From the sequence record PZ445431.1: 64,000 nt of DNA. One strand, written 5' to 3'. Origin of the DNA: a phage. The notes beneath the pieces were generated by a model. That model was not told where the DNA came from, ran no database searches, and saw only the letters and a program-made list of their open reading frames with translations. Positions within the stretch are counted from its first letter, which is position 1. The number at the start of each line of letters is the position of its first letter. The translations under genes were made by a program, and so were the position numbers. This document shows positions 18,364-30,258 of the stretch, piece after piece.

Positions 18364-18392
18364 CCAATTTTATTAACTGCTAGGAAAATAAA

Positions 18393-18593
18393 GTGAAAAC
18401 ACGATATATAGTAAAAGTAGTAGGTGAACATTCACAAGTAAATACCACCGATGTTACAGCGCTAGCATTTGAAGTAGTCTCCGGTATAGTCATATTTCAT
18501 AACGGAGATATCAAAGCTCCTGAATTTGCTGTGGATGCTAGCCTGTTTATTTCTGCAACTAAAGTAACTGTAGTAGCTAACTCTTCTAAATAA
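18393..18593 (+). CDS. hypothetical protein (66 aa)
   Basis: ORF track only. Confidence 0.4.
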   Translation: MKTRYIVKVVGEHSQVNTTDVTALAFEVVSGIVIFHNGDIKAPEFAVDASLFISATKVTVVANSSK

Positions 18594-18604
18594 TAAGGAA
18601 ATAT

Positions 18605-19549: not shown

Positions 19550-19572
19550 TAGTTACACGTAATCTTCGAACC

Positions 19573-19612
19573 AAGCCCGCGTTTCCTCTGAGAGCGCGGG
19601 CTTTTCTGTATT
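19573..19612 (+). terminator. rho-independent terminator
   Basis: AAGCCCGCG ... CGCGGGCTT stem followed by TTCTGTATTT. Confidence 0.7.
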
Positions 19613-19752
19613 TAAGGCAAAAGAAAAGCCCATAAGTTATTCAACTAAGGTCTTTAGTATTTAATTCTTTAGAATCATATACTATTATTTCAGCAACAAC
19701 GTGCTGCCCTTAAGTGCCCTGCGATTTTCCTCTAAAAAGTTAAAAAATTCGA

Positions 19753-19781
19753 TTGCTTGAATGCTAAATTCTCTGTATAAT
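19753..19781 (+). promoter_or_regulatory. T5-type early promoter upstream of nadR-like gene
   Basis: TTGCTT 19753-19758, TATAAT 19776-19781. Confidence 0.7.
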
Positions 19782-19811
19782 ATATTTATAAATTTGAGAG
19801 AGGAATCAAAT

Positions 19812-20867
19812 ATGATTAAGACTGGTCTAGTAATTGGTAAGTTCGCACCATTAACACGTGGTCATATTAACCTAATAAACACAGCAGCAACTATGTGTGA
19901 ACGAGTTATAGTTGTAGTTAGTCATGATAATCGCTGGCTGGATAAACAAAACACACGTGATCAGGAAGTCTTACAGTTAAAGAACCGACTTCGTTGGTTA
20001 GAACAAACTTACGCGGATATTGAGCACATTTCGGTAGAGTACATTATTGAAGATGATATTCCTGAATATCCGAATGGTTGGCCGGAATATGCTAGAATAC
20101 TTAATGAAAATTATGGACATTTGCCTGAGATCACCATTTTCTCTAGCGAACTAGACTATGATGCAGAATATAAGAAATATCTGCCGAAGTTTGGTCATTA
20201 TATTGTAGATTCTGATCGGACTCGTGTTCCAATCTCAGCTACAATGATTCGTAATGATCTTATGAAGTATTGGGAGTTTCTTCCTAGCGTAGTTCGTAAA
20301 GATTACGTGCGTAAGGTTGTAATCATTGGGACTGAAAGCTCGGGAAAGACTACTTTAACAAAATACCTTGCGAAGCTATACAACACTTCGTGGGTAGAAG
20401 AATATGGTCGAACGTATTGTGAAGTTGATCTAGTTGGTAACGAAAATCTGCTTACCAGCGAAGATTATAGTAAAATTGCGTTCAGACACAAAGAGCTAGA
20501 GTTTGAAGCAGAACGTACTGCAAATAAGATCATGTTTGTGGATACAAATGCTTTTATTACTGAGTTCTACCACAGACTTTATGAACATAGTAAGAATCCT
20601 GTGGTTACAGCAATTGCAAAAGAAGAACATTATGATTTAGTAATTGTTCTAGCGCCTACTGTCAAGTGGGTAGATGATGGTTTACGTATTAACTCCGATC
20701 GTTCAATTACTTCTGAACTGTTCGAGCAGATGAAGAAAGAATTTCCAAATCAGTTCCCTGAAGGGCGTACTGTTTACATCGACTCTCCGGACTACAAAGT
20801 TCGTATGGACGAAGCAGTAAACGCAGTAGACTGGCTGATTCATCACTTTAACGTTGGAGAGTTTTAA
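19812..20867 (+). CDS. nadR: NadR-like bifunctional NMN adenylyltransferase / ribosylnicotinamide kinase (no HTH domain)
   Basis: GKFAPLTRGHINLI nucleotidyltransferase motif and VVIIGTESSGKTTLTKYLAKLYNTSWVEEYGR P-loop closely matching NadR; start ATG 19812 after conserved leader GAGAGAGGAATCAAAT. Confidence 0.8.
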   Translation: MIKTGLVIGKFAPLTRGHINLINTAATMCERVIVVVSHDNRWLDKQNTRDQEVLQLKNRLRWLEQTYADIEHISVEYIIEDDIPEYPNGWPEYARILNENYGHLPEITIFSSELDYDAEYKKYLPKFGHYIVDSDRTRVPISATMIRNDLMKYWEFLPSVVRKDYVRKVVIIGTESSGKTTLTKYLAKLYNTSWVEEYGRTYCEVDLVGNENLLTSEDYSKIAFRHKELEFEAERTANKIMFVDTNAFITEFYHRLYEHSKNPVVTAIAKEEHYDLVIVLAPTVKWVDDGLRINSDRSITSELFEQMKKEFPNQFPEGRTVYIDSPDYKVRMDEAVNAVDWLIHHFNVGEF

Positions 20868-20868
20868 T

Positions 20869-21546
20869 ATGACTAACTATCTCGTAAATGACTTTAAAAA
20901 CTGGAAACCTCTGGAATATCTGTGGCTGTTCATAGCGGTTGTCTTCATTAGTTTAGCAAACTATAATGGTACAGCTCTAGATTGGGCTACTGCAATAACC
21001 AATGTGGTTTGTGTTATTCTGGTTGCAAAAGGACGTGTTTCCAACTATATTTGGGGCTTAGTGGGTGTTCTTACATATGGTATTACAGCTTTAAACGCAG
21101 ATCTTTATGGTAACGCTGCACTAAACCTGCTATACTACGTTCCTATGCAGTTTTATGGAATGTACTTATGGCATAAAAATAAGCCAAGTAATCTGCCGGA
21201 TGTTCCAACTAAGGTTCTGACTAAAGCCCAAGCTCTGCTGACTCTAGGGATTCTAGCAGTAGCCACGTTAGGGTATGGTAGTTTCTTAGCTACTACGGCT
21301 GATCCATTTCCAATGTTGGATGCATTTACTGCGGTAGGTAGTGTGATCGCTATGTGGCTTATGGTTAAGCAGTATGCCGAGCAGTGGCTGATCTGGATTG
21401 CTATTAACATTGGTACTGTGTACATTTGGCTTGTAACTGCTCAATCTACAGGTGCATCTTATGCAATCCTAGCAATGTGGCTAGTATTCTTAGGTAACTC
21501 TATTATGGGAGCCTATAAAGGATACTTTGTACGCGTTAACAAATAA
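20869..21546 (+). CDS. pnuC: PnuC-family nicotinamide riboside transporter
   Basis: Multi-TM 226 aa protein with Trp-rich PnuC-like helices, immediately downstream of the nadR-like gene. Confidence 0.7.
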   Translation: MTNYLVNDFKNWKPLEYLWLFIAVVFISLANYNGTALDWATAITNVVCVILVAKGRVSNYIWGLVGVLTYGITALNADLYGNAALNLLYYVPMQFYGMYLWHKNKPSNLPDVPTKVLTKAQALLTLGILAVATLGYGSFLATTADPFPMLDAFTAVGSVIAMWLMVKQYAEQWLIWIAINIGTVYIWLVTAQSTGASYAILAMWLVFLGNSIMGAYKGYFVRVNK

Positions 21547-21553
21547 AGTAGTT

Positions 21554-21580
21554 ATAGCCCTCGCTTAGAGGGCTATTATA
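21554..21580 (+). terminator. rho-independent terminator
   Basis: TAGCCCTC-GCTTA-GAGGGCTA hairpin followed by TTATAC. Confidence 0.6.
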
Positions 21581-21593
21581 CAGAAATTTTCAC

Positions 21594-21622
21594 TTGCTTA
21601 ATATAGAAAATTTCTGTATAAT
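21594..21622 (+). promoter_or_regulatory. T5-type early promoter
   Basis: TTGCTT 21594-21599, TATAAT 21617-21622. Confidence 0.7.
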
Positions 21623-21652
21623 ATATTTATAAATTTGAGAGAGGAATCAAAT

Positions 21653-21949
21653 ATGAAACGCATTGTACTTGCATTGACTCTAGTATCTACTTCTGTATTT
21701 GCTGCTCCACAACAGGAACTTTGTCAAGTTCAAGTTTGTAATAAGCTAGAACGATTTACTCTAGACATTTGGTCACATATTAAAGATAATATGGGTGAAC
21801 AGTGTTTTGATATTGTTCTGCCAAAAGAACAAGCTGTTCCTGGTGCTGTTCTCAGTTCAGAATCACGTTGGTGGCAGGGTTCTTCTATCAATCCAACTAA
21901 GAAGTCAGTGACACGTATCAAACAAGTATATCAGTGCAATGTTCAGTAA
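21653..21949 (+). CDS. secreted small Cys-containing protein
   Basis: Signal peptide MKRIVLALTLVSTSVFA; four Cys; conserved promoter/leader upstream. Confidence 0.6.
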   Translation: MKRIVLALTLVSTSVFAAPQQELCQVQVCNKLERFTLDIWSHIKDNMGEQCFDIVLPKEQAVPGAVLSSESRWWQGSSINPTKKSVTRIKQVYQCNVQ

Positions 21950-21957
21950 AATTTCAC

Positions 21958-21986
21958 TTGCTTAATGCCGAAATTTTCTGTATAAT
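21958..21986 (+). promoter_or_regulatory. T5-type early promoter driving tRNA-Ser/tRNA-CAU
   Basis: TTGCTT 21958-21963, TATAAT 21981-21986; tRNA starts 15 nt downstream. Confidence 0.7.
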
Positions 21987-22000
21987 ATATTCATAATTTC

Positions 22001-22091
22001 GGAAGATTAACCCTAAAGGTAAGGGAGCTGTTTGCTAAACAGCTAGTAGCTGTGGAAACACGGTGTGCCAGTTCGAGTCTGGCATCTTCCT
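22001..22091 (+). tRNA. tRNA-Ser (anticodon GCU), type II
   Basis: Perfect acceptor GGAAGAT/ATCTTCC, anticodon arm GCTGT-TTGCTAA-ACAGC, long variable arm, T-arm GCCAG-TTCGAGT-CTGGC, encoded CCA. Confidence 0.75.
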
Positions 22092-22099
22092 CCAAATTT

Positions 22100-22174
22100 G
22101 GTTCTCAAGCTCATTTGGTATGAGCCGTCGCCTCATAAGCGAAAGGTAGGTAGGTTCGAATCCTCCGGGAGCCA
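22100..22174 (+). tRNA. tRNA with CAU anticodon (Met/fMet or Ile-lysidine)
   Basis: Acceptor GGTTCTC/GGGAGCC (two G-U), anticodon loop CTCATAA, T-loop TTCGAAT, encoded CCA. Confidence 0.6.
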
Positions 22175-22194
22175 CCAATTAACTAGGAGACGAT

Positions 22195-22380
22195 ATGTCT
22201 AAGTTTCAGGAATTGAAGCAGGAACTAGAAGAGTGTGCCTGCCCAAAATGCTTCGGAGCAGGTGAATGGAACGATGCTGAACCTGGTGATACATGGTATA
22301 ATACATACGTTTGTACACATTGTAATGGTTCTGGTATTAATCCTGAATGCGGTATTTCTCTAGGTATTGAGCGAGGCTAA
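22195..22380 (+). CDS. hypothetical Cys-rich (zinc-ribbon-like) small protein
   Basis: CxxC ... CxxC pairs in 61 aa; AGGAG RBS. Confidence 0.5.
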   Translation: MSKFQELKQELEECACPKCFGAGEWNDAEPGDTWYNTYVCTHCNGSGINPECGISLGIERG

Positions 22381-22381
22381 G

Positions 22382-22714
22382 ATGGATATTTACACTACAC
22401 CAGCAGTAAACCTGATTGGCTCTTGCCTTGTGCATTTCCGCTTCTTCCAAACGGATGATAGCAAAGAGGAGTATACCTATCCTCTGATGGATTTTCAGAT
22501 TGAGGACTTCTTCCGTGAAGTGCGTAATATCTCTGAGAACTTCTATTATGGCATGGATAAGGAAGACTTTGACATTGAGTTCCCTATAATCTCTCGTTAT
22601 TTCCTAGAGCAGTCCGACGCTCGGTTTGAGAAGATTGAACACATGGAAGTAGCCTGGGCTATCCAGTTCGAAATTACTGGCTTTGCTCGATACATTCAAG
22701 GTTACGAACTATGA
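22382..22714 (+). CDS. hypothetical protein (about 110 aa)
   Basis: ORF; start moved to internal ATG 22382 to avoid overlap. Confidence 0.5.
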   Translation: MDIYTTPAVNLIGSCLVHFRFFQTDDSKEEYTYPLMDFQIEDFFREVRNISENFYYGMDKEDFDIEFPIISRYFLEQSDARFEKIEHMEVAWAIQFEITGFARYIQGYEL

Positions 22715-22809
22715 AATTAAAAGATTATTATATTGGTTGGTTTGTAGGACTAATAGTAGGATTTTCACTGGGCTACAACTTGTATCAACTGATAAACTGA
22801 TTACATGGG
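22714..22809 (+). CDS. possible small hydrophobic peptide (31 aa)
   Basis: ATGA-coupled to upstream stop; single predicted TM; overlaps the 5' end of the following tRNA by 3 nt. Confidence 0.25.
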
Positions 22810-22880
22810 GGTGTAATCGAATTGGCATAGGTACTGGACTTAAAATTCAGGTTTTGTGGGTTCGAATCCCACCACCCCTA
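22807..22880 (+). tRNA. tRNA, anticodon UAA by eye (Leu-type anticodon on a short-variable-arm body)
   Basis: Acceptor GGGGGTG/CACCCCT, anticodon arm CTGGA-CTTAAAA-TTCAG, T-arm GTGGG-TTCGAAT-CCCAC, A73, encoded CCA. Confidence 0.55.
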
Positions 22881-22898
22881 CCAAATTAAGGAAATAAA

Positions 22899-23021
22899 AT
22901 GAAAGCTATTAAGAAAGCACTGCGTAAATTTATGTATTGTCGTTTTCATAGCATCAAGGCTTCAACTAATGGTACTACTTACGATCGCTATGATCCTAAG
23001 TTTGGCTTACATTCTAAATAA
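22899..23021 (+). CDS. possible small basic protein (40 aa)
   Basis: AAGGAA RBS then ATG; not in track (<60 aa). Confidence 0.3.
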   Translation: MKAIKKALRKFMYCRFHSIKASTNGTTYDRYDPKFGLHSK

Positions 23022-23035
23022 CTGGAGAAAACAAA

Positions 23036-23241
23036 TGGCTAATCCTGAAATTACGGCACAACGCTTTATGCTGAAAGGAATTATTGCTGAAGCAGGCATG
23101 ACAGAAGAAGTTGCAGATTTTCAAAAGCAATTCCTCAATATTCTCACTCAAGCCAAAGAGCTAGGAGAGAAAGAACATGGCGCGGCTATTATGGCAATCA
23201 CATTGGTTGGGCTTGATCTGGCTGAAGAATCAGGAGTTTAA
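23036..23241 (+). CDS. hypothetical protein (68 aa)
   Basis: ATG 23036 after GGAGAA RBS; track form 22969..23241 begins inside the preceding small ORF. Confidence 0.45.
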
Positions 23242-23271
23242 CTCCTCCAAGCAGAAATTTTAAAAATGTAC

Positions 23272-23301
23272 TTGCTTTTTACTTAAGATTTCTGCTATAA
23301 T
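23272..23301 (+). promoter_or_regulatory. T5-type early promoter (N18 spacing)
   Basis: TTGCTT 23272-23277, TATAAT 23296-23301. Confidence 0.6.
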
Positions 23302-23330
23302 AGTTATATAAGTTGATGAGAGGAATCAGA

Positions 23331-23597
23331 ATGTTAAAACGTTTTGCAGCAACTGGTATTGAAAGCTCAGTATGTAAATCCTGGGGTGGTTGGGAAGGTG
23401 AGATCGAGTGGCTTTATTTCTACAATGTAGAACTTCTTCCAGAGATCAAAGCTCAATGTATTGAGGCTGGTATGGCTCCTGATGCTACGGCTGATGTTGA
23501 AATCAGCATGAATAAGCTAGAGGGTCGAGTAGTCACTGTTACTGATGAAGGTGAAGAGGTATTCGAACTTCCATTCACTTTGAAAGTCACTCCTTAA
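23331..23597 (+). CDS. hypothetical protein (88 aa)
   Basis: ATG directly after conserved leader TTGATGAGAGGAATCAGA. Confidence 0.55.
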   Translation: MLKRFAATGIESSVCKSWGGWEGEIEWLYFYNVELLPEIKAQCIEAGMAPDATADVEISMNKLEGRVVTVTDEGEEVFELPFTLKVTP

Positions 23598-23642
23598 TTT
23601 GATTAACTGATACAGCACTGAGCAAGTTCTTTAAAATTTGAC

Positions 23643-23671
23643 TTGCTCAGTCCTTCAAAACTTGATATAAT
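23643..23671 (+). promoter_or_regulatory. T5-type early promoter driving tRNA-Tyr/Glu cluster
   Basis: TTGCTC 23643-23648, TATAAT 23666-23671. Confidence 0.65.
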
Positions 23672-23735
23672 AGTTATCTAATTTGGAAAACATATTTAAA
23701 AGTGTTTAAACTAGTATTTGAATATTTCTAAATAT

Positions 23736-23823
23736 GTTGGATTAGTATCGTAGAGGTAGCGAAGCAGACTGTAAATCTGCCGACTCGGAAGGGTCTCGGG
23801 TGGTTCGACTCCATCATCCAACA
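23736..23823 (+). tRNA. tRNA-Tyr (anticodon GUA), type II
   Basis: Perfect acceptor GTTGGAT/ATCCAAC, anticodon arm GCAGA-CTGTAAA-TCTGC, long variable arm, encoded CCA. Confidence 0.75.
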
Positions 23824-23833
23824 CCAAATTTAA

Positions 23834-23907
23834 GTCCTGTTAGACAAACTGGTAAAGTCACTACCCTTTCAAGGTAGGATTTGCGGGTTCGATCCCCGCA
23901 CAGGACG
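23834..23907 (+). tRNA. tRNA-Glu (anticodon UUC)
   Basis: Perfect acceptor GTCCTGT/ACAGGAC, anticodon arm CTACC-CTTTCAA-GGTAG, T-arm GCGGG-TTCGATC-CCCGC, encoded CCA. Confidence 0.75.
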
Positions 23908-23917
23908 CCAATTTCTG

Positions 23918-23995
23918 CATTCCTAGAGTGTTACTGGACAGCATGTCGGTCTCCAAAACCGTACGGTCTAGGTTCGAGTCCTAGTAGGTTTGCCA
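23918..23995 (+). tRNA. tRNA-like gene, possibly Trp (CCA anticodon arm CGGT-CTCCAAA-ACCG); acceptor stem not resolved
   Basis: Anticodon arm and T-arm CTAGG-TTCGAGT-CCTAG resemble tRNA-Trp but I could not pair a 5' acceptor strand by eye. Confidence 0.35.
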
Positions 23996-24001
23996 ATATT
24001 T

Positions 24002-24073
24002 GCACCTTTAGCTGAGATGGATTAGCGCTTGCCTGAAGAGCTTGAGAGGTTCGTTCGATACGAACAGGGTGCA
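24002..24073 (+). tRNA. tRNA, anticodon not resolved by eye (possibly CCU)
   Basis: Acceptor GCACCTT/AGGGTGC, T-arm GTTCG-TTCGATA-CGAAC, encoded CCA; anticodon stem has a mismatch. Confidence 0.5.
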
Positions 24074-24087
24074 CCAATTTGAAGGAG

Positions 24088-24366
24088 ATGCTGATGCATC
24101 CTGAAAACTTCTTTATTTACTGTGCGGATAAGTCACTGAAACGCAGAATTAACAAAGTCTATCATTATCGTGCTAGTCAACAGCCTTATGTTTATGCTTT
24201 TGATGGAGATTACATCCCACTAGAACAGTTGGCCTGTGATTACATGGTTTTGAAGAACTTTGACGAGACAAAGATCTCAAGCGTTCATAATCGACAGAAC
24301 CCGTTAACGTGGAAATATAAGAAGAAAAAGAAAGGCATCAAATTCTTAAAAAATGTAGTTGCTTAA
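24088..24366 (+). CDS. hypothetical protein (about 92 aa)
   Basis: GAAGGAG RBS then ATG; 3' end overlaps the next promoter. Confidence 0.5.
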   Translation: MLMHPENFFIYCADKSLKRRINKVYHYRASQQPYVYAFDGDYIPLEQLACDYMVLKNFDETKISSVHNRQNPLTWKYKKKKKGIKFLKNVVA

Positions 24367-24387
24367 CCGCTTAAAGTTCTGTATAAT
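24359..24387 (+). promoter_or_regulatory. T5-type early promoter embedded in the 3' end of a CDS
   Basis: TTGCTT 24359-24364, TATAAT 24382-24387. Confidence 0.65.
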
Positions 24388-24416
24388 TATTACATAAATT
24401 GAACTGGAGAAGCAAC

Positions 24417-24641
24417 ATGACAGAACAAGAATTGAAAGAACGTAAGCTGGTAATGCTTCGCTTACTAAACATTTTCTCTGGTATGGATGGTGGTATTGAC
24501 TTCATTCAACTACGCACTTTTGTAGAAGAAGCAGAAGGCGAGGCTATCACTAGGATTCTTAAACATATGGGTTTGTTACTAGATGCTGCTAATGTGGCTA
24601 CTCAATATAAACTCGAAGATTTACCGGAGCGTGTTAAATGA
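24417..24641 (+). CDS. hypothetical protein (74 aa)
   Basis: ATG after conserved leader; track start 24399 lies inside the leader. Confidence 0.55.
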   Translation: MTEQELKERKLVMLRLLNIFSGMDGGIDFIQLRTFVEEAEGEAITRILKHMGLLLDAANVATQYKLEDLPERVK

Positions 24642-24829
24642 AAATGTTAGTTAAATTTAAGTGTTGTGGTTCTGAACATATTTTCACTCGTTATAGAGAG
24701 TTTAAGATGTGTGAGTGCGGTAAATCAGGCTACGATGCTGGAGATGGCTATTATGCTAGATCTATAGGACATTCTAAAGATCTAGAGTTTACTAATCTCG
24801 AAAAGCAAGATAAATCGACCGTTGGCTGA
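24638..24829 (+). CDS. hypothetical Cys-rich small protein (63 aa)
   Basis: CC...CxC cluster; overlapping ATGA coupling. Confidence 0.5.
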   Translation: MKMLVKFKCCGSEHIFTRYREFKMCECGKSGYDAGDGYYARSIGHSKDLEFTNLEKQDKSTVG

Positions 24830-24888
24830 ATGGCTTAGGCGGAGGCCTGCAAAACCTCCTTATGTGAGTTCGAATCTCATGCGGTCGT
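24816..24888 (+). tRNA. tRNA-Cys (anticodon GCA)
   Basis: Acceptor CGACCGT/GCGGTCG, anticodon arm GAGGC-CTGCAAA-ACCTC with a C-A closing mismatch, T-arm GTGAG-TTCGAAT-CTCAT, encoded CCA. Confidence 0.55.
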
Positions 24889-24898
24889 CCAAATTTTA

Positions 24899-24978
24899 GG
24901 GTCGTTAGCCAAGCGGTTTGGCGGTGGACTGTTAATCCATGTCGAAAGACAACGTAGGTTCGAATCCTACACGGCCCG
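24899..24978 (+). tRNA. tRNA-Asn (anticodon GUU) with unusually long variable region
   Basis: Acceptor GGGTCGT/ACGGCCC, anticodon arm GTGGA-CTGTTAA-TCCAT (close to E. coli tRNA-Asn), extra hairpin GTCGAAAGAC before the T-arm, encoded CCA. Confidence 0.55.
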
Positions 24979-25084
24979 CCATATTCTGTGTAGAGTTAAG
25001 TAAACCGGTAGCCAACCAGCTATCATTGCTGATATCGAATTCAGTCACAGATACCATTTTTCATTAACAACTGAGGAAATAGAT

Positions 25085-25270
25085 ATGACAACTCGTGCAA
25101 TTGCTCGACTAGAAGCTGATCGTGATAATCTGATTAATAATATTAAGGTTCGTGGTAATATTATTAAGGCTCTGAAAGCTGAACTTCTTGAAGAACTTCA
25201 AGGTCAAGTAGAGCGTCGTGAAGCTCTAAAAGAGGTTGAGGAAGCTATCGAAAAACTCAAAACTGAGTAA
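25085..25270 (+). CDS. hypothetical coiled-coil protein (61 aa)
   Basis: GAGGAAA RBS. Confidence 0.5.
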   Translation: MTTRAIARLEADRDNLINNIKVRGNIIKALKAELLEELQGQVERREALKEVEEAIEKLKTE

Positions 25271-25273
25271 ATT

Positions 25274-25855
25274 ATGCACGGAATATCCTTACCCATTCCA
25301 GGGTTTGAGGAGTACTTAGTAAGTTTGGATGGGTTAGTATTTAGTATCAAATCAAACAAAATACTAACCCAAATAACCAGTAATTACGGATACTTATCTA
25401 TACGTCTCCATAAAAATGGTCAACAGAGAAATACCGGTGTACATAGGATTTTAGCATGTGCATTTAAGAAATTACCAAGTCTAGACTCTGAACTAGAAGT
25501 TGACCATATTAACACAGACATTACTTATTGGGGTCTTAATAACTTACAAGTGCTCACAAAAGAGCAGCATCTAGAAAAGACTTTAAAAGATAAAGGATTT
25601 AGTAAACTAAACCATGATAATTGTTGTAAGGATTGTGGTAAAGCTATTTCTTTAAAAGCTGAAAAATGTCAGGAGTGCTCTTCACATAAACCAAAAGATA
25701 TCTCTATAACTAAAGAAATAATCGAGGTTACAGTAAGAGAGCTAGGCTGGTCAGGTGCAGGGAGAAAGTTAAGTTATTCAGATAATGGGTTGCGTAAAAG
25801 ATACACTTCTTTAGGAGGCAATCCTAAAGAACTTAAAAAGTTAAAGGTACTATAG
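25274..25855 (+). CDS. HNH homing endonuclease (NUMOD-type N-terminus)
   Basis: IPGFEEYLVSLDGLVFS N-terminal motif and VDHINTD...NNLQVL HNH core; stop codon lies inside the acceptor stem of the next tRNA. Confidence 0.75.
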   Translation: MHGISLPIPGFEEYLVSLDGLVFSIKSNKILTQITSNYGYLSIRLHKNGQQRNTGVHRILACAFKKLPSLDSELEVDHINTDITYWGLNNLQVLTKEQHLEKTLKDKGFSKLNHDNCCKDCGKAISLKAEKCQECSSHKPKDISITKEIIEVTVRELGWSGAGRKLSYSDNGLRKRYTSLGGNPKELKKLKVL

Positions 25856-25917
25856 TCTAACGGTTAGGATACTCCCCTGTCACGGGAGAGGTAGGGTTTC
25901 GATTACCCTTAGTACCG
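25846..25917 (+). tRNA. tRNA-Asp (anticodon GUC)
   Basis: Perfect acceptor GGTACTA/TAGTACC, anticodon arm CTCCC-CTGTCAC-GGGAG, T-arm AGGGT-TTCGATT-ACCCT, encoded CCA; 5' end overlaps the HNH gene stop. Confidence 0.75.
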
Positions 25918-25926
25918 CCAAATTAT

Positions 25927-26000
25927 ACATCCATAGCTCAATTGGTTAGAGCTACCGCCTCTTAAGCGGTAGGTTCTAGGTTCAAGTCCTTCATTGGAGA
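25927..26000 (+). tRNA. tRNA-Lys-like (anticodon CUU); acceptor/T stems imperfect
   Basis: Canonical D-arm GCTCAATTGGTTAGAGC and anticodon arm ACCGC-CTCTTAA-GCGGT; acceptor pairing poor by eye. Confidence 0.4.
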
Positions 26001-26010
26001 CCAAACAATT

Positions 26011-26084
26011 GCGGGTTAGATCTTTGGTAGAGATCGCTAGTCTCATAAGCTAGAAAGAGGTAGGTTCGATTCCTGCACCCGCTT
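26011..26084 (+). tRNA. tRNA with CAU anticodon (second copy)
   Basis: Acceptor GCGGGTT/CACCCGC region, anticodon arm CTAGT-CTCATAA-GCTAG, T-arm GTAGG-TTCGATT-CCTGC, encoded CCA. Confidence 0.6.
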
Positions 26085-26108
26085 CCAATTTAATAGAAGG
26101 ATTTCGAA

Positions 26109-26273
26109 ATGAAATTATTTCGTTTAAAAGTAAGTGATTTACGTTCTAGCAAAGATCGTAAGAAGTATCCACTAGCCCATTACGGTAAAGATGAAAACGA
26201 AGTGATGGCGGAATTTGGTATTAATCACCCTTACTTAAAAGTTTATTCTATTAAGGAAGTCTATGCTAATTAA
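26109..26273 (+). CDS. hypothetical small protein (54 aa)
   Basis: AAGGA RBS then ATG; not in track (<60 aa). Confidence 0.4.
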   Translation: MKLFRLKVSDLRSSKDRKKYPLAHYGKDENEVMAEFGINHPYLKVYSIKEVYAN

Positions 26274-26736
26274 TAAAGTTTTAGCTGCCTTAAACCTTCC
26301 TGATAACTTCATTATAGATGATAAGCTCATAAGAGCTTATATGAGCAAATATAACGAAATTTCAGGTAAAGAAGGTAAGTTAAAAACTTCAGAGTTTAGA
26401 TTCTGTTATCGAATGGCAGCCTTAAATCTCTTAAAATATAAAAGGGAGCATAAAATACCTATAACGGAAGGTTTTGTATATGTAATTGGTAATCCAGCAT
26501 GGCCAGGCATGTATAAAATAGGTATGACTATAGATGTGAATGAGAGGTTAACAAGTTATCAAACTTATTCACCTAATAGAGACTACAAGCTATACCATTT
26601 CAGATTTTCGTCGGATAAAAGACGTACAGAGAAAGAATTACATAATCTTCTTAAAGATTATAGAGTATCTGGAGAATGGTTTGAAGTACCTGTACTAGAT
26701 GCTTTTAAATTATTAGTAGAAAAATTGGATTGCTAG
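26263..26736 (+). CDS. T5orf172-domain (GIY-YIG-like) protein, putative homing endonuclease
   Basis: GFVYVIGNPAWPGMYKIGMTIDVNERL matches the T5orf172/GIY-YIG-like core; 3' end overlaps the next tRNA acceptor stem. Confidence 0.6.
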   Translation: MLINKVLAALNLPDNFIIDDKLIRAYMSKYNEISGKEGKLKTSEFRFCYRMAALNLLKYKREHKIPITEGFVYVIGNPAWPGMYKIGMTIDVNERLTSYQTYSPNRDYKLYHFRFSSDKRRTEKELHNLLKDYRVSGEWFEVPVLDAFKLLVEKLDC

Positions 26737-26801
26737 CTCAACTGGATAAGAGTAGCGGACCTTTAATCCGTCAGTTCTGGGTTCGAATCCCAGGCAATCC
26801 A
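26727..26801 (+). tRNA. tRNA, anticodon UUU by eye (Lys) with C at position 33
   Basis: Perfect acceptor GGATTGC/GCAATCC, T-arm CTGGG-TTCGAAT-CCCAG, encoded CCA. Confidence 0.55.
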
Positions 26802-26808
26802 CCAAATT

Positions 26809-26879
26809 GCTCGGTTAGTTTAATGGGAGAACCCCGTCTTTACACGGCGGTTGCGATAGTTCGATTCTATCACCGAGTA
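26809..26879 (+). tRNA. tRNA-like gene with apparent 6-nt anticodon loop (anticodon unresolved)
   Basis: Acceptor GCTCGGT/ACCGAGT, perfect T-arm GATAG-TTCGATT-CTATC, encoded CCA; only CCGT/ACGG pairs around loop CTTTAC. Confidence 0.45.
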
Positions 26880-26906
26880 CCACTCAACTAAAATAAGGAA
26901 TTGCAA

Positions 26907-27143
26907 ATGCAATTATCATCTAAAGTTCAAGGTTTCTTCGCACATGCAACAGCAGAATTTGCTATTAGCAAGGGTTGGGATTTTGAGCAAGAACTTTCTG
27001 AGTTCTATAAAGATATAGATATGAATACGCCATACATGGGACTCTCCACTGGTCAAGAGATCACAGAAGGCGATGTGTTCAAGGCAAGTCAAGGTGAGGT
27101 AACACCTAGTTTTGCCGCTTTTTTGGAGTGGCTTCACAATTAA
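26907..27143 (+). CDS. hypothetical protein (78 aa)
   Basis: AAGGAA RBS; second in-frame ATG chosen for spacing. Confidence 0.5.
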   Translation: MQLSSKVQGFFAHATAEFAISKGWDFEQELSEFYKDIDMNTPYMGLSTGQEITEGDVFKASQGEVTPSFAAFLEWLHN

Positions 27144-27252
27144 AGAAGAAGCTCCAGATGATGATGTATTTATGCAAAGCATGCACTCTGGGAGTTCTGA
27201 TATGTTATTTGTTAAAGATGTACGACATATCCAAGAAGTGGTAAAAACGCAG

Positions 27253-27281
27253 TTGCTTAATGCTTAATTTCTTGTTATAAT
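27253..27281 (+). promoter_or_regulatory. T5-type early promoter driving ORF-free/tRNA-like segment
   Basis: TTGCTT 27253-27258, TATAAT 27276-27281. Confidence 0.7.
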
Positions 27282-27284
27282 ATT

Positions 27285-27615
27285 TATATAAATTGATGCG
27301 AAAATAGCTGCCTAGATACCAGGTGTATGACGTCTACACTAGCAGAGCTACCGAAAAAGAGATCCTCAGGATAAACGTCGTAGCAAAATTAGTCTGGTAT
27401 CCATTAATTTAGTTCACTAAGGTATTAGCTCGACCTAGGACTGGCTGCCAAAAAGCACGATCCCTACGATTTGGGAGAAGTTCTAGATTAGTCCACTAGA
27501 TTCAGCGGCAACTGAATAGTGTATCGGGTTTGTGAAGAGCAGCTATTCTCTACTGGCTAATGTCTGAGGTTAGTACGCACACCGAGCTAATAGCCTTAGT
27601 AAACTTAAAGAATTT
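27285..27615 (+). ncRNA. candidate non-coding RNA (ORF-free segment downstream of consensus promoter)
   Basis: About 330 nt with no ORF >=60 aa after promoter 27253-27281; long-range complement GATACCAG (27308) / CTGGTATC (27394) and hairpin ATTCAG-CGGCAA-CTGAAT. Confidence 0.35.
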
Positions 27616-27688
27616 GGGCGAATAGTGTCAGCGGGAGCACACCAGACTTGCAAGTCTGGTAGGGAGGGTTCGAGTCTCTCTTTGTCCA
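27616..27688 (+). tRNA. tRNA-like gene with non-canonical anticodon loop (6 or 8 nt around TTGCAA)
   Basis: Acceptor GGGCGAA/TTTGTCC (two G-U), D-stem GTGT/ACAC, stem CCAGAC/GTCTGG, T-arm GAGGG-TTCGAGT-CTCTC, encoded CCA. Confidence 0.45.
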
Positions 27689-27706
27689 CCAAATTAAAAA
27701 GAATGC

Positions 27707-27780
27707 GCGCGATTGACGGAATAGGTATACGTGTCAGCCTTAGAAGTTGAATTTTGAGGGTTCGAATCCCTTGTCGCGCA
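27707..27780 (+). tRNA. tRNA, anticodon UAG by eye (Leu-type anticodon on a short-variable-arm body)
   Basis: Perfect acceptor GCGCGAT/GTCGCGC, anticodon arm TCAGC-CTTAGAA-GTTGA, T-arm GAGGG-TTCGAAT-CCCTT, A73, encoded CCA. Confidence 0.55.
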
Positions 27781-27908
27781 CCAAATTTGATGGTCAGAGT
27801 AAATTAAACCTACTATCTCGGTTGAGCTGTTTTAATGGATTCGAATCCCAGCGAGGCGTAACTGCCTGGCGTGATAGAGGCATCATTCCACTAACATTGG
27901 AAAAACTA

Positions 27909-28139
27909 ATGAAACGAAAATTAAAAAAGTCTTATATAATTAAGATAAATAAGCTACGAAGTAGGGCAAAAGGATGGCCACTTCGAATATTAATTGCGGA
28001 TAACCATATTAGATACCATGCGGAACAACATCATTACAAACAGTGGGAGTCATACTGTCGCTCAAAAGCAGGTCGTTTAGATGGATCTTATGAGCTTCTA
28101 TTTGGTAAGAAGCCTACTAGATTAGCTTTAGGTAAGTAA
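27909..28139 (+). CDS. hypothetical basic protein (76 aa)
   Basis: Internal ATG of track ORF 27747..28139; the upstream part of that ORF overlaps tRNA-like sequence. Confidence 0.35.
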   Translation: MKRKLKKSYIIKINKLRSRAKGWPLRILIADNHIRYHAEQHHYKQWESYCRSKAGRLDGSYELLFGKKPTRLALGK

Positions 28140-28144
28140 TACTT

Positions 28145-28235
28145 GGAAAAGCAAATAGACTGGCGACTAAACCCGATTGGAAATCGGTTGAGTAATAGCA
28201 ATATTGCCTTATGGGTTCAACTCCCATCTTTTCCG
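28145..28235 (+). tRNA. tRNA-Ser (anticodon GGA), type II
   Basis: Perfect acceptor GGAAAAG/CTTTTCC, anticodon arm CCCGA-TTGGAAA-TCGGT, long variable arm, T-arm ATGGG-TTCAACT-CCCAT, encoded CCA. Confidence 0.7.
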
Positions 28236-28253
28236 CCAAATATTGGAGTATAG

Positions 28254-28769
28254 ATGCTAACACAACAAGAATTAAAATCCGTGTTGTTATATAAACCAGA
28301 TACTGGAGAGTTTTTCTGGAAATATAGATCTGATTTAGATAGTCAATGGAATAGTAAATATGCTGGAACTAGGGCAGGATTTATTAATGAACTAGGCTAT
28401 TGGAAGATAACTCTAGGAAATACTAGCTGGTTAGCACATCGTCTAGCATTCTTATACATGACTGGGGAAATACCAGATCTAATTGACCACAAGGATCAAG
28501 ATAAGTCCAATACTAAATGGGATAACTTACGAATAGCCACTGTATCACAGAATCAGGCTAATGCTAAATTAAGGGTAGATAATACCTCTGGGTACAAAAA
28601 TGTAACTTGGCATAAGCAAAGAAATAAGTGGAAAGTAGAAGTACGTAAAGATGGCAAACTCCATTATGGTGGACTTTTTACAGAACTAGATAAAGCTGTA
28701 AATAAAGCTAATAATCTTAGACGTGAGTTATTCGGGGAATTTGCAGTATATGAAGAGTTTATGGGGTAG
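28254..28769 (+). CDS. HNH homing endonuclease with AP2-type DNA-binding domain
   Basis: Same architecture as 6957..7472 (ELK..LYKPDTG.F.W, IDHKDQDKSNTKWDNLR, AP2-like SGYKNVTWHK); stop lies inside the next tRNA acceptor stem. Confidence 0.8.
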   Translation: MLTQQELKSVLLYKPDTGEFFWKYRSDLDSQWNSKYAGTRAGFINELGYWKITLGNTSWLAHRLAFLYMTGEIPDLIDHKDQDKSNTKWDNLRIATVSQNQANAKLRVDNTSGYKNVTWHKQRNKWKVEVRKDGKLHYGGLFTELDKAVNKANNLRRELFGEFAVYEEFMG

Positions 28770-28856
28770 GTCAATCCAACGGCTGGCGCTGGACTCCGAC
28801 TTGAAATCGGTTGATCGTAGTGATACGGTGTAAGGGTTCGATCCCCTTACCTACCT
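28765..28856 (+). tRNA. tRNA-Ser (anticodon UGA), type II
   Basis: Perfect acceptor GGTAGGT/ACCTACC, anticodon loop CTTGAAA, long variable arm, T-arm AAGGG-TTCGATC-CCCTT, encoded CCA. Confidence 0.7.
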
Positions 28857-28879
28857 CCAATTAACTATAAGGAATCCTT

Positions 28880-29053
28880 ATGAGCAAAACAGCTACTGTA
28901 ACAATGAAGGATGGTACAAAATTTAAAGCATGTCTTCATGAAACAGATAATGGATGGAAGGCTTATTTGCCACACCTAGATTCCACTGGGTATGGAATGA
29001 CCCAACGTGAAGCTATTGTTGATGCTTTAAATGAGGCTTCCGCTGGTTTATAA
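28880..29053 (+). CDS. hypothetical small protein (57 aa)
   Basis: TAAGGAA RBS then ATG; not in track (<60 aa). Confidence 0.4.
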   Translation: MSKTATVTMKDGTKFKACLHETDNGWKAYLPHLDSTGYGMTQREAIVDALNEASAGL

Positions 29054-29060
29054 AAATTCT

Positions 29061-29191
29061 TGGAATATGCCGGAATTGGTAGACGGGACTGCCGAATAGG
29101 TTTACTAGGAACATCCACTCCTAGAAATATACCTTAAAAGCGGTTGAGTTAAATGGTATAACTCATGAAGGTTCAAGTCCTTCTATTCCTT
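29061..29191 (+). tRNA. tRNA-like element of abnormal length (about 131 nt, or 85 nt from alternative 5' end); possible insertion-containing or degenerate tRNA
   Basis: Leu-like D-arm TGCCGGAATTGGTAGACGGG near 5' end, perfect T-arm GAAGG-TTCAAGT-CCTTC at 3' end, acceptor candidates pair 6/7, no encoded CCA. Confidence 0.3.
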
Positions 29192-29312
29192 GATACATCA
29201 ATGGCTCAAAGTGTAACGGTGCTATTTGATGCTCTTGGCAAGACTTCCCCGACATGCGTTCGGGAGTAAGCTGCTAAGACTAGAGTAGAAGAGTTTCAAC
29301 AAGACAACGATA

Positions 29313-29384
29313 GCTCTTAAAGCATTGCTGGCGATGCAGTTGCCTTGTAAGCATCTGAACCGGGTTCGATTCCTAGTGGGAGCA
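29313..29384 (+). tRNA. tRNA-Thr (anticodon UGU)
   Basis: Acceptor GCTCTTA/TGGGAGC (two G-U), D-arm GCAT...ATGC, anticodon arm GTTGC-CTTGTAA-GCATC, T-loop TTCGATT, encoded CCA. Confidence 0.55.
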
Positions 29385-29403
29385 CCAAAATTAAAAAATT
29401 CAT

Positions 29404-29432
29404 TTGCCTTCTCTCTTATTTCTTGTTATTAT
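29404..29432 (+). promoter_or_regulatory. early promoter variant (TTGCCT-N17-TATTAT)
   Basis: -35 at 29404-29409, -10 at 29427-29432. Confidence 0.55.
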
Positions 29433-29462
29433 ATTTATATAAATTAATGAGAGGGAAACCAA

Positions 29463-29756
29463 ATGAAACGTTATCTTTCTGTTATGTTCCAAACTGGTGG
29501 TCAACGCTATACTTATGAATTTCCATCTTCTTGGAAGATCAAAGAAGGTGATCAAGTAGTAGTGTTAACACCGCGTGATGGTTTCAAGGTAGTAACGGTT
29601 AAGCAAGTATTTCCAAAAGATCACGAACCATCTAAGGCTATTCAGTACAAGATGATTCATGGTCTGGTACGAAAAGTACCTAGAACAGAAGTCGAAGTAG
29701 ATAAAACTGGGGAAGCTAAATACCAGTATACCTCTTACTTAGACGAGTTGTTATAA
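29463..29756 (+). CDS. hypothetical protein (97 aa)
   Basis: ATG directly after conserved leader AATTAATGAGAGGGAAACCAA. Confidence 0.55.
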   Translation: MKRYLSVMFQTGGQRYTYEFPSSWKIKEGDQVVVLTPRDGFKVVTVKQVFPKDHEPSKAIQYKMIHGLVRKVPRTEVEVDKTGEAKYQYTSYLDELL

Positions 29757-29962
29757 TGGGAATTACTTTCACAGAAAAGATTATGGGCAATGGTGTTATG
29801 ATCATTACCGCATGGGATGGTAATCAGTGGTGTAGTGTTTCAGGTATTAAGCCTGAAGAACAAACACTAGAAAATATCTCAAAGATTAAGCGAAGAATGG
29901 CAGAACGTGCACGACTTCCAGGTGCGCCTAGAAATGGTAAACGTTCTGCAATTAAATGTTAA
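29756..29962 (+). CDS. hypothetical protein (68 aa)
   Basis: ATAATG-coupled ORF. Confidence 0.5.
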   Translation: MGITFTEKIMGNGVMIITAWDGNQWCSVSGIKPEEQTLENISKIKRRMAERARLPGAPRNGKRSAIKC

Positions 29963-29963
29963 T

Positions 29964-30037
29964 GCTTCGGTAGCTTAGCGATCTAAAGCACTCGGCTGAT
30001 AACCGAGAGATCGGGGGTTTAAATCCCTCCCGGAGTA
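29964..30037 (+). tRNA. tRNA-Ile (anticodon GAU)
   Basis: Acceptor GCTTCGG/CCGGAGT (two G-U), anticodon arm CTCGG-CTGATAA-CCGAG, T-arm GGGGG-TTTAAAT-CCCTC, encoded CCA. Confidence 0.65.
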
Positions 30038-30058
30038 CCAAATTTAGGAAGTAAGACT

Positions 30059-30133
30059 ATGCGTCCAGGAAAGTTTAAAAAAAAAAAAAAGCTAATTGGT
30101 CTAAAGAGTATAAAGAATATTTACTTAGTCTAG
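30059..30133 (+). CDS. possible mini-ORF (24 aa) containing an A14 homopolymer
   Basis: ATG after TAGGAAG; translation MRPGKFKKKKKLIGLKSIKNIYLV; coding status doubtful. Confidence 0.2.
   Translation: MRPGKFKKKKKLIGLKSIKNIYLV
30077..30090. repeat. A14 homopolymeric tract
   Basis: 14 consecutive A between tRNA-Ile and the third CAU tRNA. Confidence 0.95.
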
Positions 30134-30144
30134 TAAAACATAAT

Positions 30145-30217
30145 AGTTAGTTGGCAGAGTGGTTATGCACCTCCTTCATACGGAGCGACTACAGTGGTTC
30201 AAATCCACTACTAACTA
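30145..30217 (+). tRNA. tRNA with CAU anticodon (third copy)
   Basis: Perfect acceptor AGTTAGT/ACTAACT, anticodon loop TTCATAC, T-arm AGTGG-TTCAAAT-CCACT, encoded CCA. Confidence 0.6.
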
Positions 30218-30258
30218 CCATAAAAAAGAGCTAGAGATAGCTAAATATAGGAGCAAGT

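Follow-up and report, generated by a model that had tools for sequence, protein, structure and literature searches.

Two armless tRNA-Leu genes and a tRNA-Asn gene with a variable-region hairpin in a T5-like phage

The window analysed in the present study is a stretch of 64,000 nucleotides (PZ445431.1), which is 100% identical to MZ501109, the T5-like Escherichia phage TrudiRoth (Bas30). Three tRNA genes on the plus strand were called with ARAGORN and, as an independent method, with Infernal against the Rfam family RF00005, whose gathering score is 29 bits. All three belong to this family, with scores of 57.4 bits for tRNA-Leu(UAA), 59.0 bits for tRNA-Asn(GUU) and 55.6 bits for tRNA-Leu(UAG). 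In each of them the ARAGORN call ends 3 nt beyond the coordinates of an earlier note on this DNA, because the CCA is encoded. The earlier note had also wondered whether its anticodons were off by one position. The annotation deposited with MZ501109 (tRNA-Leu TTA, tRNA-Leu CTA and tRNA-Asn AAC) has the same isotypes as our calls, automated folding assigned no different anticodon to any of the three genes, and the concordance of ARAGORN, Infernal and GenBank excludes a misread anticodon. Elsewhere in the window, a Lys(CTT) gene at 25928-26003 is a chimera in which the acceptor strands are unpaired.

The tRNA-Leu(UAA) gene occupies 22807-22883 (22807-22880 in Infernal), is 77 nt long and is of type I, that is, armless, with A73. 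Its anticodon, UAA at 22841-22843 in both ARAGORN and Rfam, reads UUA/UUG. A Leu-type D-loop motif, GAAUUGGCAUA, lies at 22819-22829 between the strands of a 3-bp D stem and comprises A14, A15, G18, G19 and A20a, and the Rfam alignment places a variable loop of 5 nt, GUUUU with U48 as its last base, at 22851-22855. The tRNA-Leu(UAG) gene, at 27707-27783 (27707-27780 in Infernal), is likewise a type I gene of 77 nt with A73, and it has A37. Its anticodon UAG at 27741-27743 (ARAGORN, Rfam) reads CUA/CUG, the Leu-type D-loop motif GAAUAGGUAUA is found at 27719-27729, and the 5-nt variable loop AUUUU, again ending in U48, at 27751-27755 (Rfam alignment). For both genes the two programs thus agree with the earlier note, which had read these anticodons together with A73 and no long arm. 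In TrudiRoth, UUA and CUA make up 25% and 18% of Leu codons.

Apart from the missing arm, the bodies of both genes are those of a tRNA-Leu. In both, a D stem of 3 bp carries an 11-nt D loop and the anticodon is one of those for Leu (NAG or YAA), but the variable loop is 5 nt long, where a class II tRNA-Leu has a stem-loop arm of at least 10 nt; the arms of E. coli leuZ and leuW are 15 and 13 nt. In the D arm, the length is the same as in leuZ/leuW and 9 of 11 loop bases match, and the Leu(UAG) gene of phage River4 has its 5' acceptor strand in common with leuW. The motif GAAYNGGYAKA was found in 19 of 82 unique viral Leu genes versus 1 of about 880 other tRNAs, this one being a mis-parsed Leu, so the motif is effectively Leu-specific. 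A73 was present in all 82 viral Leu genes, and U48 in 40 of 41 short and 40 of 41 long ones. When 20 short Leu genes from independent phages, pre-selected on ARAGORN's fold, were compared, double compensatory changes were seen in 18 of 20 pairs and the covariation score was 1.05, versus 0.27 after shuffling (0/500) and at most 0.21 in slid registers. In the same set U8, A14, G18, G19 and U48 were invariant. These results support the conclusion that the body of the short Leu genes is of Leu type except for the arm, and that its fold is under selection.

The third gene, tRNA-Asn(GUU), is located at 24899-24981 (24899-24978 in Infernal), with a length of 83 nt, G73 and the anticodon GUU at 24931-24933 in both ARAGORN and Rfam. 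Its variable region of 13 nt (24941-24953) consists of a hairpin, GUC-GAAA-GAC, at 24941-24950, followed by unpaired AAC; Infernal aligns it with a 10-nt insertion. ARAGORN and Infernal therefore bear out the Asn-like gene with an extra variable-region hairpin that the earlier note had described. At 13 nt, the region is longer than the 4-5 nt loop of class I tRNAs, while the D arm, with a 4-bp stem and a 7-nt loop, is of class I type. The gene also differs from canonical class II tRNAs, which combine a long arm with a 3-bp D stem and a Ser, Leu, Tyr or Sec anticodon, and its arm of 3 bp compares with 5 bp in the phage's own Ser arms. Phage records covering at least 80% of the gene number 535, and among homologues the hairpin stem is swapped for GUCA/UGAC, AUCC/GGAU, GUUC/GAAC, GGGA/UCCC and others. 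In 29 unique long Asn variable regions, the mean best stem was 3.52 bp against 2.74 +/- 0.13 bp in shuffled sequences (0/1000), with a stem of at least 3 bp in 24 and a GNRA loop in 12 of the 29. The Asn arm is therefore supported as a conserved, covarying hairpin.

Comparison with the annotated sets of T5, BF23 and 'phage 5' (AJ604531, NC_005859; annotated with suppressor tests) showed the same gene order and flanking small ORFs as in the window. T5 itself, unlike TrudiRoth, has an 85-nt Leu(UAG), a short-loop Asn of 78 nt and no Leu(UAA). The Leu(UAA) and Asn(GUU) of the window are base-for-base identical to tRNAL2 and tRNAN of 'phage 5' (AJ604531, deposited 2004). The GenBank notes on these two genes record that the version of tRNAL2 with a CUA anticodon is an 'effective amber suppressor' and that of tRNAN an 'amber suppressor', and leave the inserted amino acid unnamed; suppressor activity in vivo is thus taken from database notes on identical genes. 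Among close relatives, the syntenic Leu(UAG) slot is occupied by an 85-nt (T5), 81-nt (Bas28) or 77-nt gene, and the Asn slot by a 78-nt (T5), 83-nt or 86-nt gene. The Leu(UAG) allele of TrudiRoth is nearly unique; that common in other T5-like phages is only about 83% identical, and the stem changes are compensatory.

It could be argued that such genes are decaying pseudogenes or tRNA-like relics, whose odd variable regions are damage in a recombination-prone array rich in homing endonucleases. The array does contain damaged genes, such as the chimeric Lys(CTT), the Asn gene of Bas34 has a replaced 3' acceptor strand, and several tRNA-like stable RNAs have been annotated in T5. Against this, no stem of the three genes is broken (55-59 bits in Rfam), Leu(UAA) is at least 99% identical across 293 phage records, the stems covary, compensatory changes preserve the Asn arm, and suppressor activity is on record for identical sequences. 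The idea of relics is largely refuted and we give it almost no weight. The three are genuine, conserved genes, and hundreds of T5-like records already annotate them.

How the short Leu tRNAs would be charged depends on what the host enzyme reads. In E. coli, leucine identity requires A73 and tertiary elements, the arm and the anticodon being dispensable (PMC9976931). Both short Leu genes have this identity set (A73, U8-A14, A15-U48, G18G19 and A20a). Host LeuRS would recognise A73, the D-loop/T-loop corner and the core (A14, A15-U48, G18G19, A20a) and ignore the anticodon and the long arm, and the short genes retain every such element, with the arm alone absent. Leu would thus be free to lose its arm, because the identity read by E. 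coli LeuRS is independent of it. Likewise, amber suppression by the CUA version of tRNAL2 is expected, since leucine identity is independent of the anticodon. A minimal E. coli tRNA-Leu that lacks the variable and anticodon arms remains active and is charged by LeuRS as long as it keeps A73 and the D/T-loop interactions (PMC9976931). The phage genes have the same configuration, but they are natural, abundant and under selection, and the minimal tRNAs are laboratory constructs.

Type I tRNA-Leu is also known from other systems. Bacterial tRNA-Leu is class II as a rule; a natural exception is the tRNA-Leu(CAA) of Streptomyces coelicolor, which, like the phage genes, has a 5-nt variable loop, and which coexists with type II isoacceptors (PMC6614811). 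ScoLeuRS has a specialised leucine-specific domain and makes no use of A73, whereas the phage Leu tRNAs retain A73, U48 and an E. coli-type D loop and would depend on unmodified host LeuRS. The same study stated that EcLeuRS charges type II tRNA-Leu only, its C-terminal domain contacting variable-arm nucleotides 47f-47i, and that it does not charge the Streptomyces type I tRNA-Leu(CAA) (PMC6614811). Because of this failure, charging of an armless tRNA-Leu by EcLeuRS is not to be assumed. Animal mitochondrial tRNA-Leu(UUR) is also of type I and armless, with identity resting on A73 and A14, but the cores of mitochondrial tRNAs are reduced and floppy and their LeuRS is a dedicated one, and the phage Leu tRNAs have canonical G18G19 and T-loop elements. 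Most likely, the short Leu tRNAs are charged by host LeuRS, for which the suppressor note on tRNAL2 is indirect evidence; the amino acid that they carry is inferred.

For the Asn gene, the identity set of AsnRS, G34, U35 and U36 plus G73, is present, in line with Asn identity being the anticodon plus G73 (PMC9976931). The set formed by its acceptor and D stem (G1-C72, G2-C71, G3-C70, G73 and C11-G24) overlaps with those that specify Ser and Gln, and cross-charging is possible. Class II synthetases such as AsnRS approach the tRNA from the variable-loop side. Since AsnRS is of this class, the 13-nt arm must be accommodated. The best reading is that host AsnRS charges the Asn tRNA; the attached amino acid and the reason for the arm are inferred. 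Indirect evidence for charging with asparagine comes from the exchange of this gene for ordinary Asn alleles among close relatives, and from phage Bas33, which has a long-armed Asn and did not require added Asn tRNA under PARIS.

A body mismatched to its anticodon could instead serve recoding or mischarging, so that UUA/CUA would be read as an amino acid other than Leu, or the long-armed tRNA would decode AAC/AAU as Ser, Leu or Gln. The nematode nev-tRNAs are a precedent, being class II bodies with Gly or Ile anticodons that are charged with Leu (PMC3333845). The likeness of the Asn acceptor/D-stem set to those of Ser and Gln points in this direction, and amber is suppressed by the CUA version of the long-armed Asn even though AsnRS requires the anticodon; another synthetase can therefore charge this body. 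However, amber suppressors are commonly mischarged, and the suppression therefore says little about the form with the wild-type anticodon. In the short Leu genes, A73 and U48 accompany a D-arm motif specific to Leu. As in the nev-tRNAs, the variable-arm class of the Asn gene is at odds with its anticodon, but the body of nev-tRNAs is of Leu type, and in the Asn gene G73 takes the place of A73; this gene also lacks the GAAYNGGYAKA motif, has a class I 4-bp D stem and an arm of 3 bp only, far short of the Ser arms of this phage, and swaps with ordinary Asn alleles. Short and long alleles exchange at one locus among close relatives, which necessarily have one genetic code. Recoding is thus very improbable.

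We conclude that all three are most probably working phage tRNA genes in a T5-like array, charged by host LeuRS and AsnRS. The suggestion that they may be unusual phage isoacceptors thus gains ground from the Leu-type body minus its arm, conservation and covariation, one recorded functional test and the covarying Asn hairpin. Their role would be to provide decoding capacity during infection; T5-family tRNAs are known to replace host tRNAs that are destroyed by defence nucleases. The arm pattern reaches far beyond T5-like phages and is common in phages. In 120 viral loci the long arm was kept in 72/74 Ser and 32/33 Tyr genes but in only 47/91 Leu genes, and this pattern probably tracks the need of the synthetase, with phage Ser and Tyr tRNAs retaining the arm. 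Mini-arms with many compensatory stem variants occurred in 22 of 122 sampled viral Asn genes, and also on Thr, Cys, Ile, Trp, Glu and other viral tRNAs. Across 185,579 cellular genomes there are only 12 matches to the long-armed Asn, and this difference from the viral sample would favour a counter-defence role of the arm.

Such a role, which would be an addition to charging by the host and not exclusive of it, is possible but unlikely. Arm loss in Leu and mini-arm gain in Asn and Thr would alter the shape met by immune effectors, with synthetase recognition kept; the candidates are the Toprim tRNases PARIS AriB and P2 OLD and the MenT/AbiE-type nucleotidyltransferases. AriB cuts three tRNAs of E. 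coli, namely Lys(UUU), Thr(UGU) and Asn(GUU), at the bond from nt 40 to nt 41, adjoining the variable region, and contacts U16-U17 of the D loop. In T5-like phages, the AriB site has G39 in the Asn and Thr alleles with a short loop, and long-armed ones retain the host-like UAAUC|C or UAAUC|A. The nuclease-resistant tRNAs of the T5 family, which replace host tRNAs, are of the same isotypes and phage family as those of the window; T5 variants escape by substitutions around nt 39-41, whereas the Asn of the window retains the host-like UAAUCC and differs by the extra arm and C16. Bas33, which has long-armed Thr and Asn, was rescued from PARIS by T5 tRNA-Lys alone and required no Asn supplement, and its plasmid-expressed Thr(UGU) gave strong rescue from OLD, the E. 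coli copy giving none. MenT3 requires the long variable arm to hold its tRNA, and a tRNA-Met became a substrate once an arm had been grafted onto it; AbiEii has an apparent preference for class II tRNAs.

On the other hand, the association of site and arm fails in the broader viral sample, where UAAUCA is found in 13/35 short and 2/7 long Thr(UGU) genes. The change from the E. coli U16 to the C16 of the long-armed Asn by itself impaired AriB on tRNA-Lys, and the arm is thus unnecessary to explain resistance. Mini-arms are also carried by Cys, Ile, Trp, Glu and other tRNAs that are not known AriB targets, the known defence systems of enterobacteria include none that uses the tRNA-Leu arm, and the logic of MenT3 predicts that arm gain is a liability. 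The wider proposal, that phages systematically remodel the variable arm so that immune effectors miss replacement tRNAs which the host can still charge, is less likely still. It would have the arm deleted from about half of phage tRNA-Leu genes and GNRA-capped mini-arms inserted into Asn, Thr, Cys, Ile and other tRNAs, so that AriB, OLD and MenT/AbiE-type enzymes would no longer bind or cleave them.

The genes themselves are known, and the general arm pattern of phages seems to be little discussed and under-described; the word 'variable' is absent from the publications on nuclease-resistant replacement tRNAs of the T5 family. If the remodelling proposal is true, E. coli LeuRS would have natural substrates in the type I tRNA-Leu of coliphages, which conflicts with its description as an enzyme that charges type II only.

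By the textbook rule, a bacterial-type tRNA-Leu belongs to class II without exception, and a tRNA-Asn to class I. In the present study, ARAGORN found 21 tRNA genes on the + strand of the window, spanning 18292-30220, and three of these do not follow the rule: tRNA-Leu(UAA) at 22807-22883 (77 nt), tRNA-Asn(GUU) at 24899-24981 (83 nt) and tRNA-Leu(UAG) at 27707-27783 (77 nt), all on the + strand. The Rfam tRNA model, applied with Infernal at a threshold of 29 bits, scored them at 57.4, 59.0 and 55.6 bits, respectively, with coordinates exactly those of an earlier note (22807-22880, 24899-24978 and 27707-27780). In the Infernal alignments, both Leu genes have A73 and a 5-nt variable loop, and the Asn gene has G73 and a 10-nt insertion in its variable region, which forms the hairpin GUC-GAAA-GAC (24941-24950) followed by unpaired AAC. 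Both programs thus confirmed the earlier description of the UAA and UAG genes as tRNA-Leu with A73 and no long arm, and of the GUU gene as an Asn-type tRNA with an additional variable-region hairpin. The doubt that the anticodons had been read one position off was unfounded, as the automated calls were UAA, UAG and GUU, and the first interpretation offered, unusual phage isoacceptors, is judged right. The region matches Escherichia phage TrudiRoth (MZ501109; BASEL phage Bas30, Demerecviridae, Epseptimavirus, T5-like) with 100% identity apart from a 980-bp deletion in the window, and the deposited annotation of MZ501109 lists the same three isotypes. None of the three genes is new; they had been annotated before, and records of identical sequences with notes on function date from twenty years ago.

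The leucine identity of E. coli consists of A73 and tertiary elements (A15-U48, G18G19, A20a and the D/T-loop contacts); the anticodon and the long arm have no part in it, and tRNA-Leu truncated to remove the arm stays active (PMC9976931). Because this identity is independent of the arm, viral tRNA-Leu is free to lose it. The counts in the viral sample fit the same synthetase-identity rule, since a long arm is present in 72 of 74 Ser genes and 32 of 33 Tyr genes and in 47 of 91 Leu genes (41 of 82 unique). Each region of the phage Leu genes was compared with its counterpart in leuZ and leuW of E. coli, and the short genes were found to have the same unusual D arm; its stem has 3 bp, and its 11-nt loop, GAAUYGGYAKA, contains A14, A15, G18, G19 and A20a. 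U48 and A73 are also kept, and Leu(UAG) of phage River4 has its 5' acceptor strand in common with leuW. The specificity of the D-loop motif, scored as GAAYNGGYAKA, was examined in 1120 tRNA genes from 120 viral loci. Among the 82 unique Leu genes, 11 short and 8 long ones carried it (19 in total), as did one of about 880 other tRNAs, namely a Leu(UAG) mis-parsed as Gly by ARAGORN. All 82 unique Leu genes have A73, and U48 is present in 40/41 of the short and 40/41 of the long ones. Twenty short Leu genes from independent phages, pre-selected on ARAGORN's fold, were aligned, and 18 of 20 base pairs showed double compensatory changes. The covariation score was 1.05, with shuffles scoring 0.27 and slid registers no more than 0.21. 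The Leu(UAG) slot of T5-like phages presents graded lengths, descending from 85 nt in T5 through 81 nt in Bas28 to 77 nt in others; in the gene of Bas28 IrmaTschudi (6567-6647 of its comparison locus), the variable loop UCUUCGGGU has 9 nt, position 37 is G and the D arm is host-like. The Tyr(GUA) gene of the same phage (1820-1900) is just 81 nt long, with a variable region of 10 nt, and is likewise of intermediate length.

The window Leu(UAA) and Asn genes are identical in sequence to tRNAL2 and tRNAN of 'bacteriophage 5' (AJ604531). The experimental notes of that record describe tRNAL2 with a CUA anticodon as an 'effective amber suppressor' and tRNAN with a CUA anticodon as an amber suppressor, the inserted amino acid being unstated in either note. 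Since the CUA version of tRNAL2 suppresses amber, the armless Leu body works in E. coli; by these notes on an identical gene, it is transcribed, processed, charged and active on the ribosome. Charging by LeuRS predicts an identity independent of the anticodon, and the suppression by tRNAL2 is what LeuRS predicts. E. coli LeuRS would be the likely charging enzyme of the phage armless tRNA-Leu, with the complication that it failed to charge a Streptomyces type I tRNA-Leu(CAA) and was called a type II-only enzyme (PMC6614811, 2019). The Streptomyces tRNA differs in having C48 and an A73-independent identity, whereas the short phage Leu genes have U48 and A73. Among the Leu codons in the long ORFs of the phage, UUA makes up 25% and CUA 18%; both are rare codons in E. 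coli, and this usage fits a supply role of the phage tRNA-Leu. Cleavage of tRNA-Leu by Retron-Kva2 was considered as a further clue and was uninformative because of its non-specific U|N cutting of many RNAs.

The short Leu(UAA) gene was found at ≥99% identity in 293 phage records, almost all Salmonella and Escherichia T5-likes, where it is annotated as tRNA-Leu. The Asn gene was at least 80% covered in 535 records, among them full-length matches at about 79-88% identity in T4-like phages of Klebsiella, Enterobacter, Cronobacter and Serratia. The TrudiRoth allele of Leu(UAG) is nearly unique, with relatives of 74-78 nt in other T5-likes (about 83%), Felixounavirus, rV5-like phages and one Vibrio phage. 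BLASTN against 5,426 complete E. coli genomes gave no significant chromosomal match to the Leu(UAA) or Asn gene (E ≥0.7); these are therefore old phage lineages, and recent capture of host genes is ruled out for both. Position 37 is A in each phage Leu(UAG) examined (27744 in the window; comparison loci L002-L007) except the 81-nt Bas28 allele, unlike E. coli leuW, whose G37 is the m1G37 position. A37 is present in about three quarters of the Leu genes of the viral sample, short and long alike.

The body of the Asn tRNA is class I, with a 4-bp D stem and a 7-nt D loop. Its anticodon arm matches that of E. coli asnT at four of five stem pairs and in the whole 7-nt loop, and the AsnRS identity set is complete. 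Homologues carry arms of differing sequence, namely GUCA-GAAA-UGAC, AUCC-GCAA-GGAU, GUUC-GAAA-GAAC, GGGA-GCAA-UCCC, GAGG-GAAA-CCUC, CCAUC-GAAA-GGUGG and others. The best stem averaged 3.52 bp over 29 unique long variable regions, against 2.74 ± 0.13 bp after shuffling, and none of 1000 shuffles reached the observed value; a stem of at least 3 bp was present in 24 of the 29 and a GNRA loop in 12. The Asn arm is real and under selection. A scan of IMG/VR for the Asn anticodon arm gave at least 22 long and at least 100 normal spacers among the matches listed. Among 185,579 species genomes of bacteria and archaea, the long form was matched in only 12 places, and so the arm is for the most part a trait of viruses. 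In the Asn slot of close relatives, alleles of 78 nt (T5), 83 nt and 86 nt replace one another, which disfavours any change in decoding. GNRA-capped mini-arms of 3-5 bp were also seen in unrelated viral contigs (L018-L137), on unique genes for Thr (7), Ile (8), Cys (7), Trp (3), Glu (2) and His, Asp and Pro (1 each), and several Ile(UAU) genes there have variable regions of 22-24 nt. A 42-aa hypothetical protein of MZ501109, bas30_0107 (window 24939-25067, +), starts within the tRNA-Asn gene and is probably an over-call. Homing-endonuclease ORFs run into the 5' ends of tRNA-Asp and tRNA-Lys(UUU) and end there.

The PARIS nuclease AriB cuts E. coli tRNA-Lys(UUU), Thr(UGU) and Asn(GUU) between nt 40/41, and the T5 copies evade it by substitutions around this site. 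By default, we regard the variable region as the one place that tolerates insertions and deletions, where inserted sequence must fold compactly; an adaptive anti-nuclease role for the extra arm seems unlikely. Such a role would suit the T5-likes, in which short-loop Asn and Thr alleles have G39 and the host site, UAAUC|C or UAAUC|A, is retained in long-armed ones, but among Thr(UGU) genes of the wider viral sample a host-like AriB site is present in 13 of 35 short and 2 of 7 long ones, so that the association is gone and a general link between arm and host-like site was rejected. For Bas33, with long-armed Thr and Asn, T5 tRNA-Lys alone sufficed for PARIS rescue, as the protective reading would expect. 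Plasmid-expressed Bas33 Thr likewise gave strong rescue from the OLD tRNase where the E. coli copy gave none. Against such a role, the long Asn tRNA also has C16, which alone impairs AriB on tRNA-Lys, and mini-arms are present on Cys, Ile, Trp and other tRNAs too. In the window tRNA-Thr(UGU) (29313-29387), a short allele, position 39 is G and the variable loop has 4 nt, whereas the allele of phage 5 and Bas33 measures 87 nt and has the arm GGA-GUAA-UCC and host-like UAAUC|A. The window tRNA-Lys(UUU) (26727-26804) has the AriB site UAAUC|C and C33 (loop CCUUUAA), where U33 is almost universal in tRNAs; this allele is shared with Bas28 and Bas32. An 87-nt 'tRNA-Lys' (UUU) of phage GAP31 (7177-7263 of its locus) was rejected as a third armed PARIS-target isotype, since its extra length is a D loop enlarged by about 11 nt, with no variable arm, and ARAGORN did not call it. 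Bas34 required T5 tRNA-Asn for PARIS rescue (PMC12409363) and has its own Asn gene, annotated as 77 nt (SelmaRatti, MZ501103; about 10598-10681 of the comparison locus). This gene is a long-armed allele uncalled by ARAGORN, with the 3' acceptor strand ACCCGCT in place of ACGGCCC and a T-stem mismatch. Bas34 was thus rejected as a counter-example, and the broken gene probably explains its need for T5 tRNA-Asn.

The missing 980 bp of MZ501109 include tRNA-Gly(GCC), and were lost by recombination across a 56-bp core common to two Lys(CTT)-like genes (junction within 25934-25990). The leftover Lys(CTT) gene (25928-26003) is a chimera whose 5' acceptor ACAUCCA (copy 1) and 3' AUUGGAG (copy 2) are unpaired; copy 2 in MZ501109 is itself a hybrid of a Lys(CUU) body and a Pro-like acceptor stem. 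The tRNA-Ala(UGC) at 27616-27691 has an 8-nt anticodon loop, CUUGCAAG, reported by ARAGORN as tRNA-??? with a 4-base anticodon, whereas its Bas34 homologue has the ordinary 7-nt loop CUUGCAA. The window version may be prone to frameshifting, may evade nucleases or may be defective. An Rfam tRNA-Sec-like match at 28765-28855 (38.3 bits), missed by ARAGORN, lies where MZ501109 has tRNA-Ser(TCA). Weak tRNA-like Rfam matches at 17157-17228 and 29123-29191 (29.3 and 23.9 bits) may be the 'tRNA-like stable RNAs' annotated in T5.

A full-text literature search, with older subscription-journal papers on T5 tRNAs outside its scope, found neither armless tRNA-Leu nor long-armed tRNA-Asn of phages described in any paper. 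Judged by the searchable literature, the pattern is under-described, and a prior description may exist. Such genes will be mishandled wherever an isotype predictor or a tRNA-seq pipeline takes class for granted from isotype. Within the window alone, the finding is ordinary, as it concerns T5-like phage tRNA genes that were already annotated; among phages, the structural pattern is general. The textbook class rule is broken, as about half of the tRNA-Leu genes in the viral-contig sample are armless, and these include coliphage genes with recorded suppressor activity, against the statement that EcLeuRS is 'type II only' (PMC6614811).
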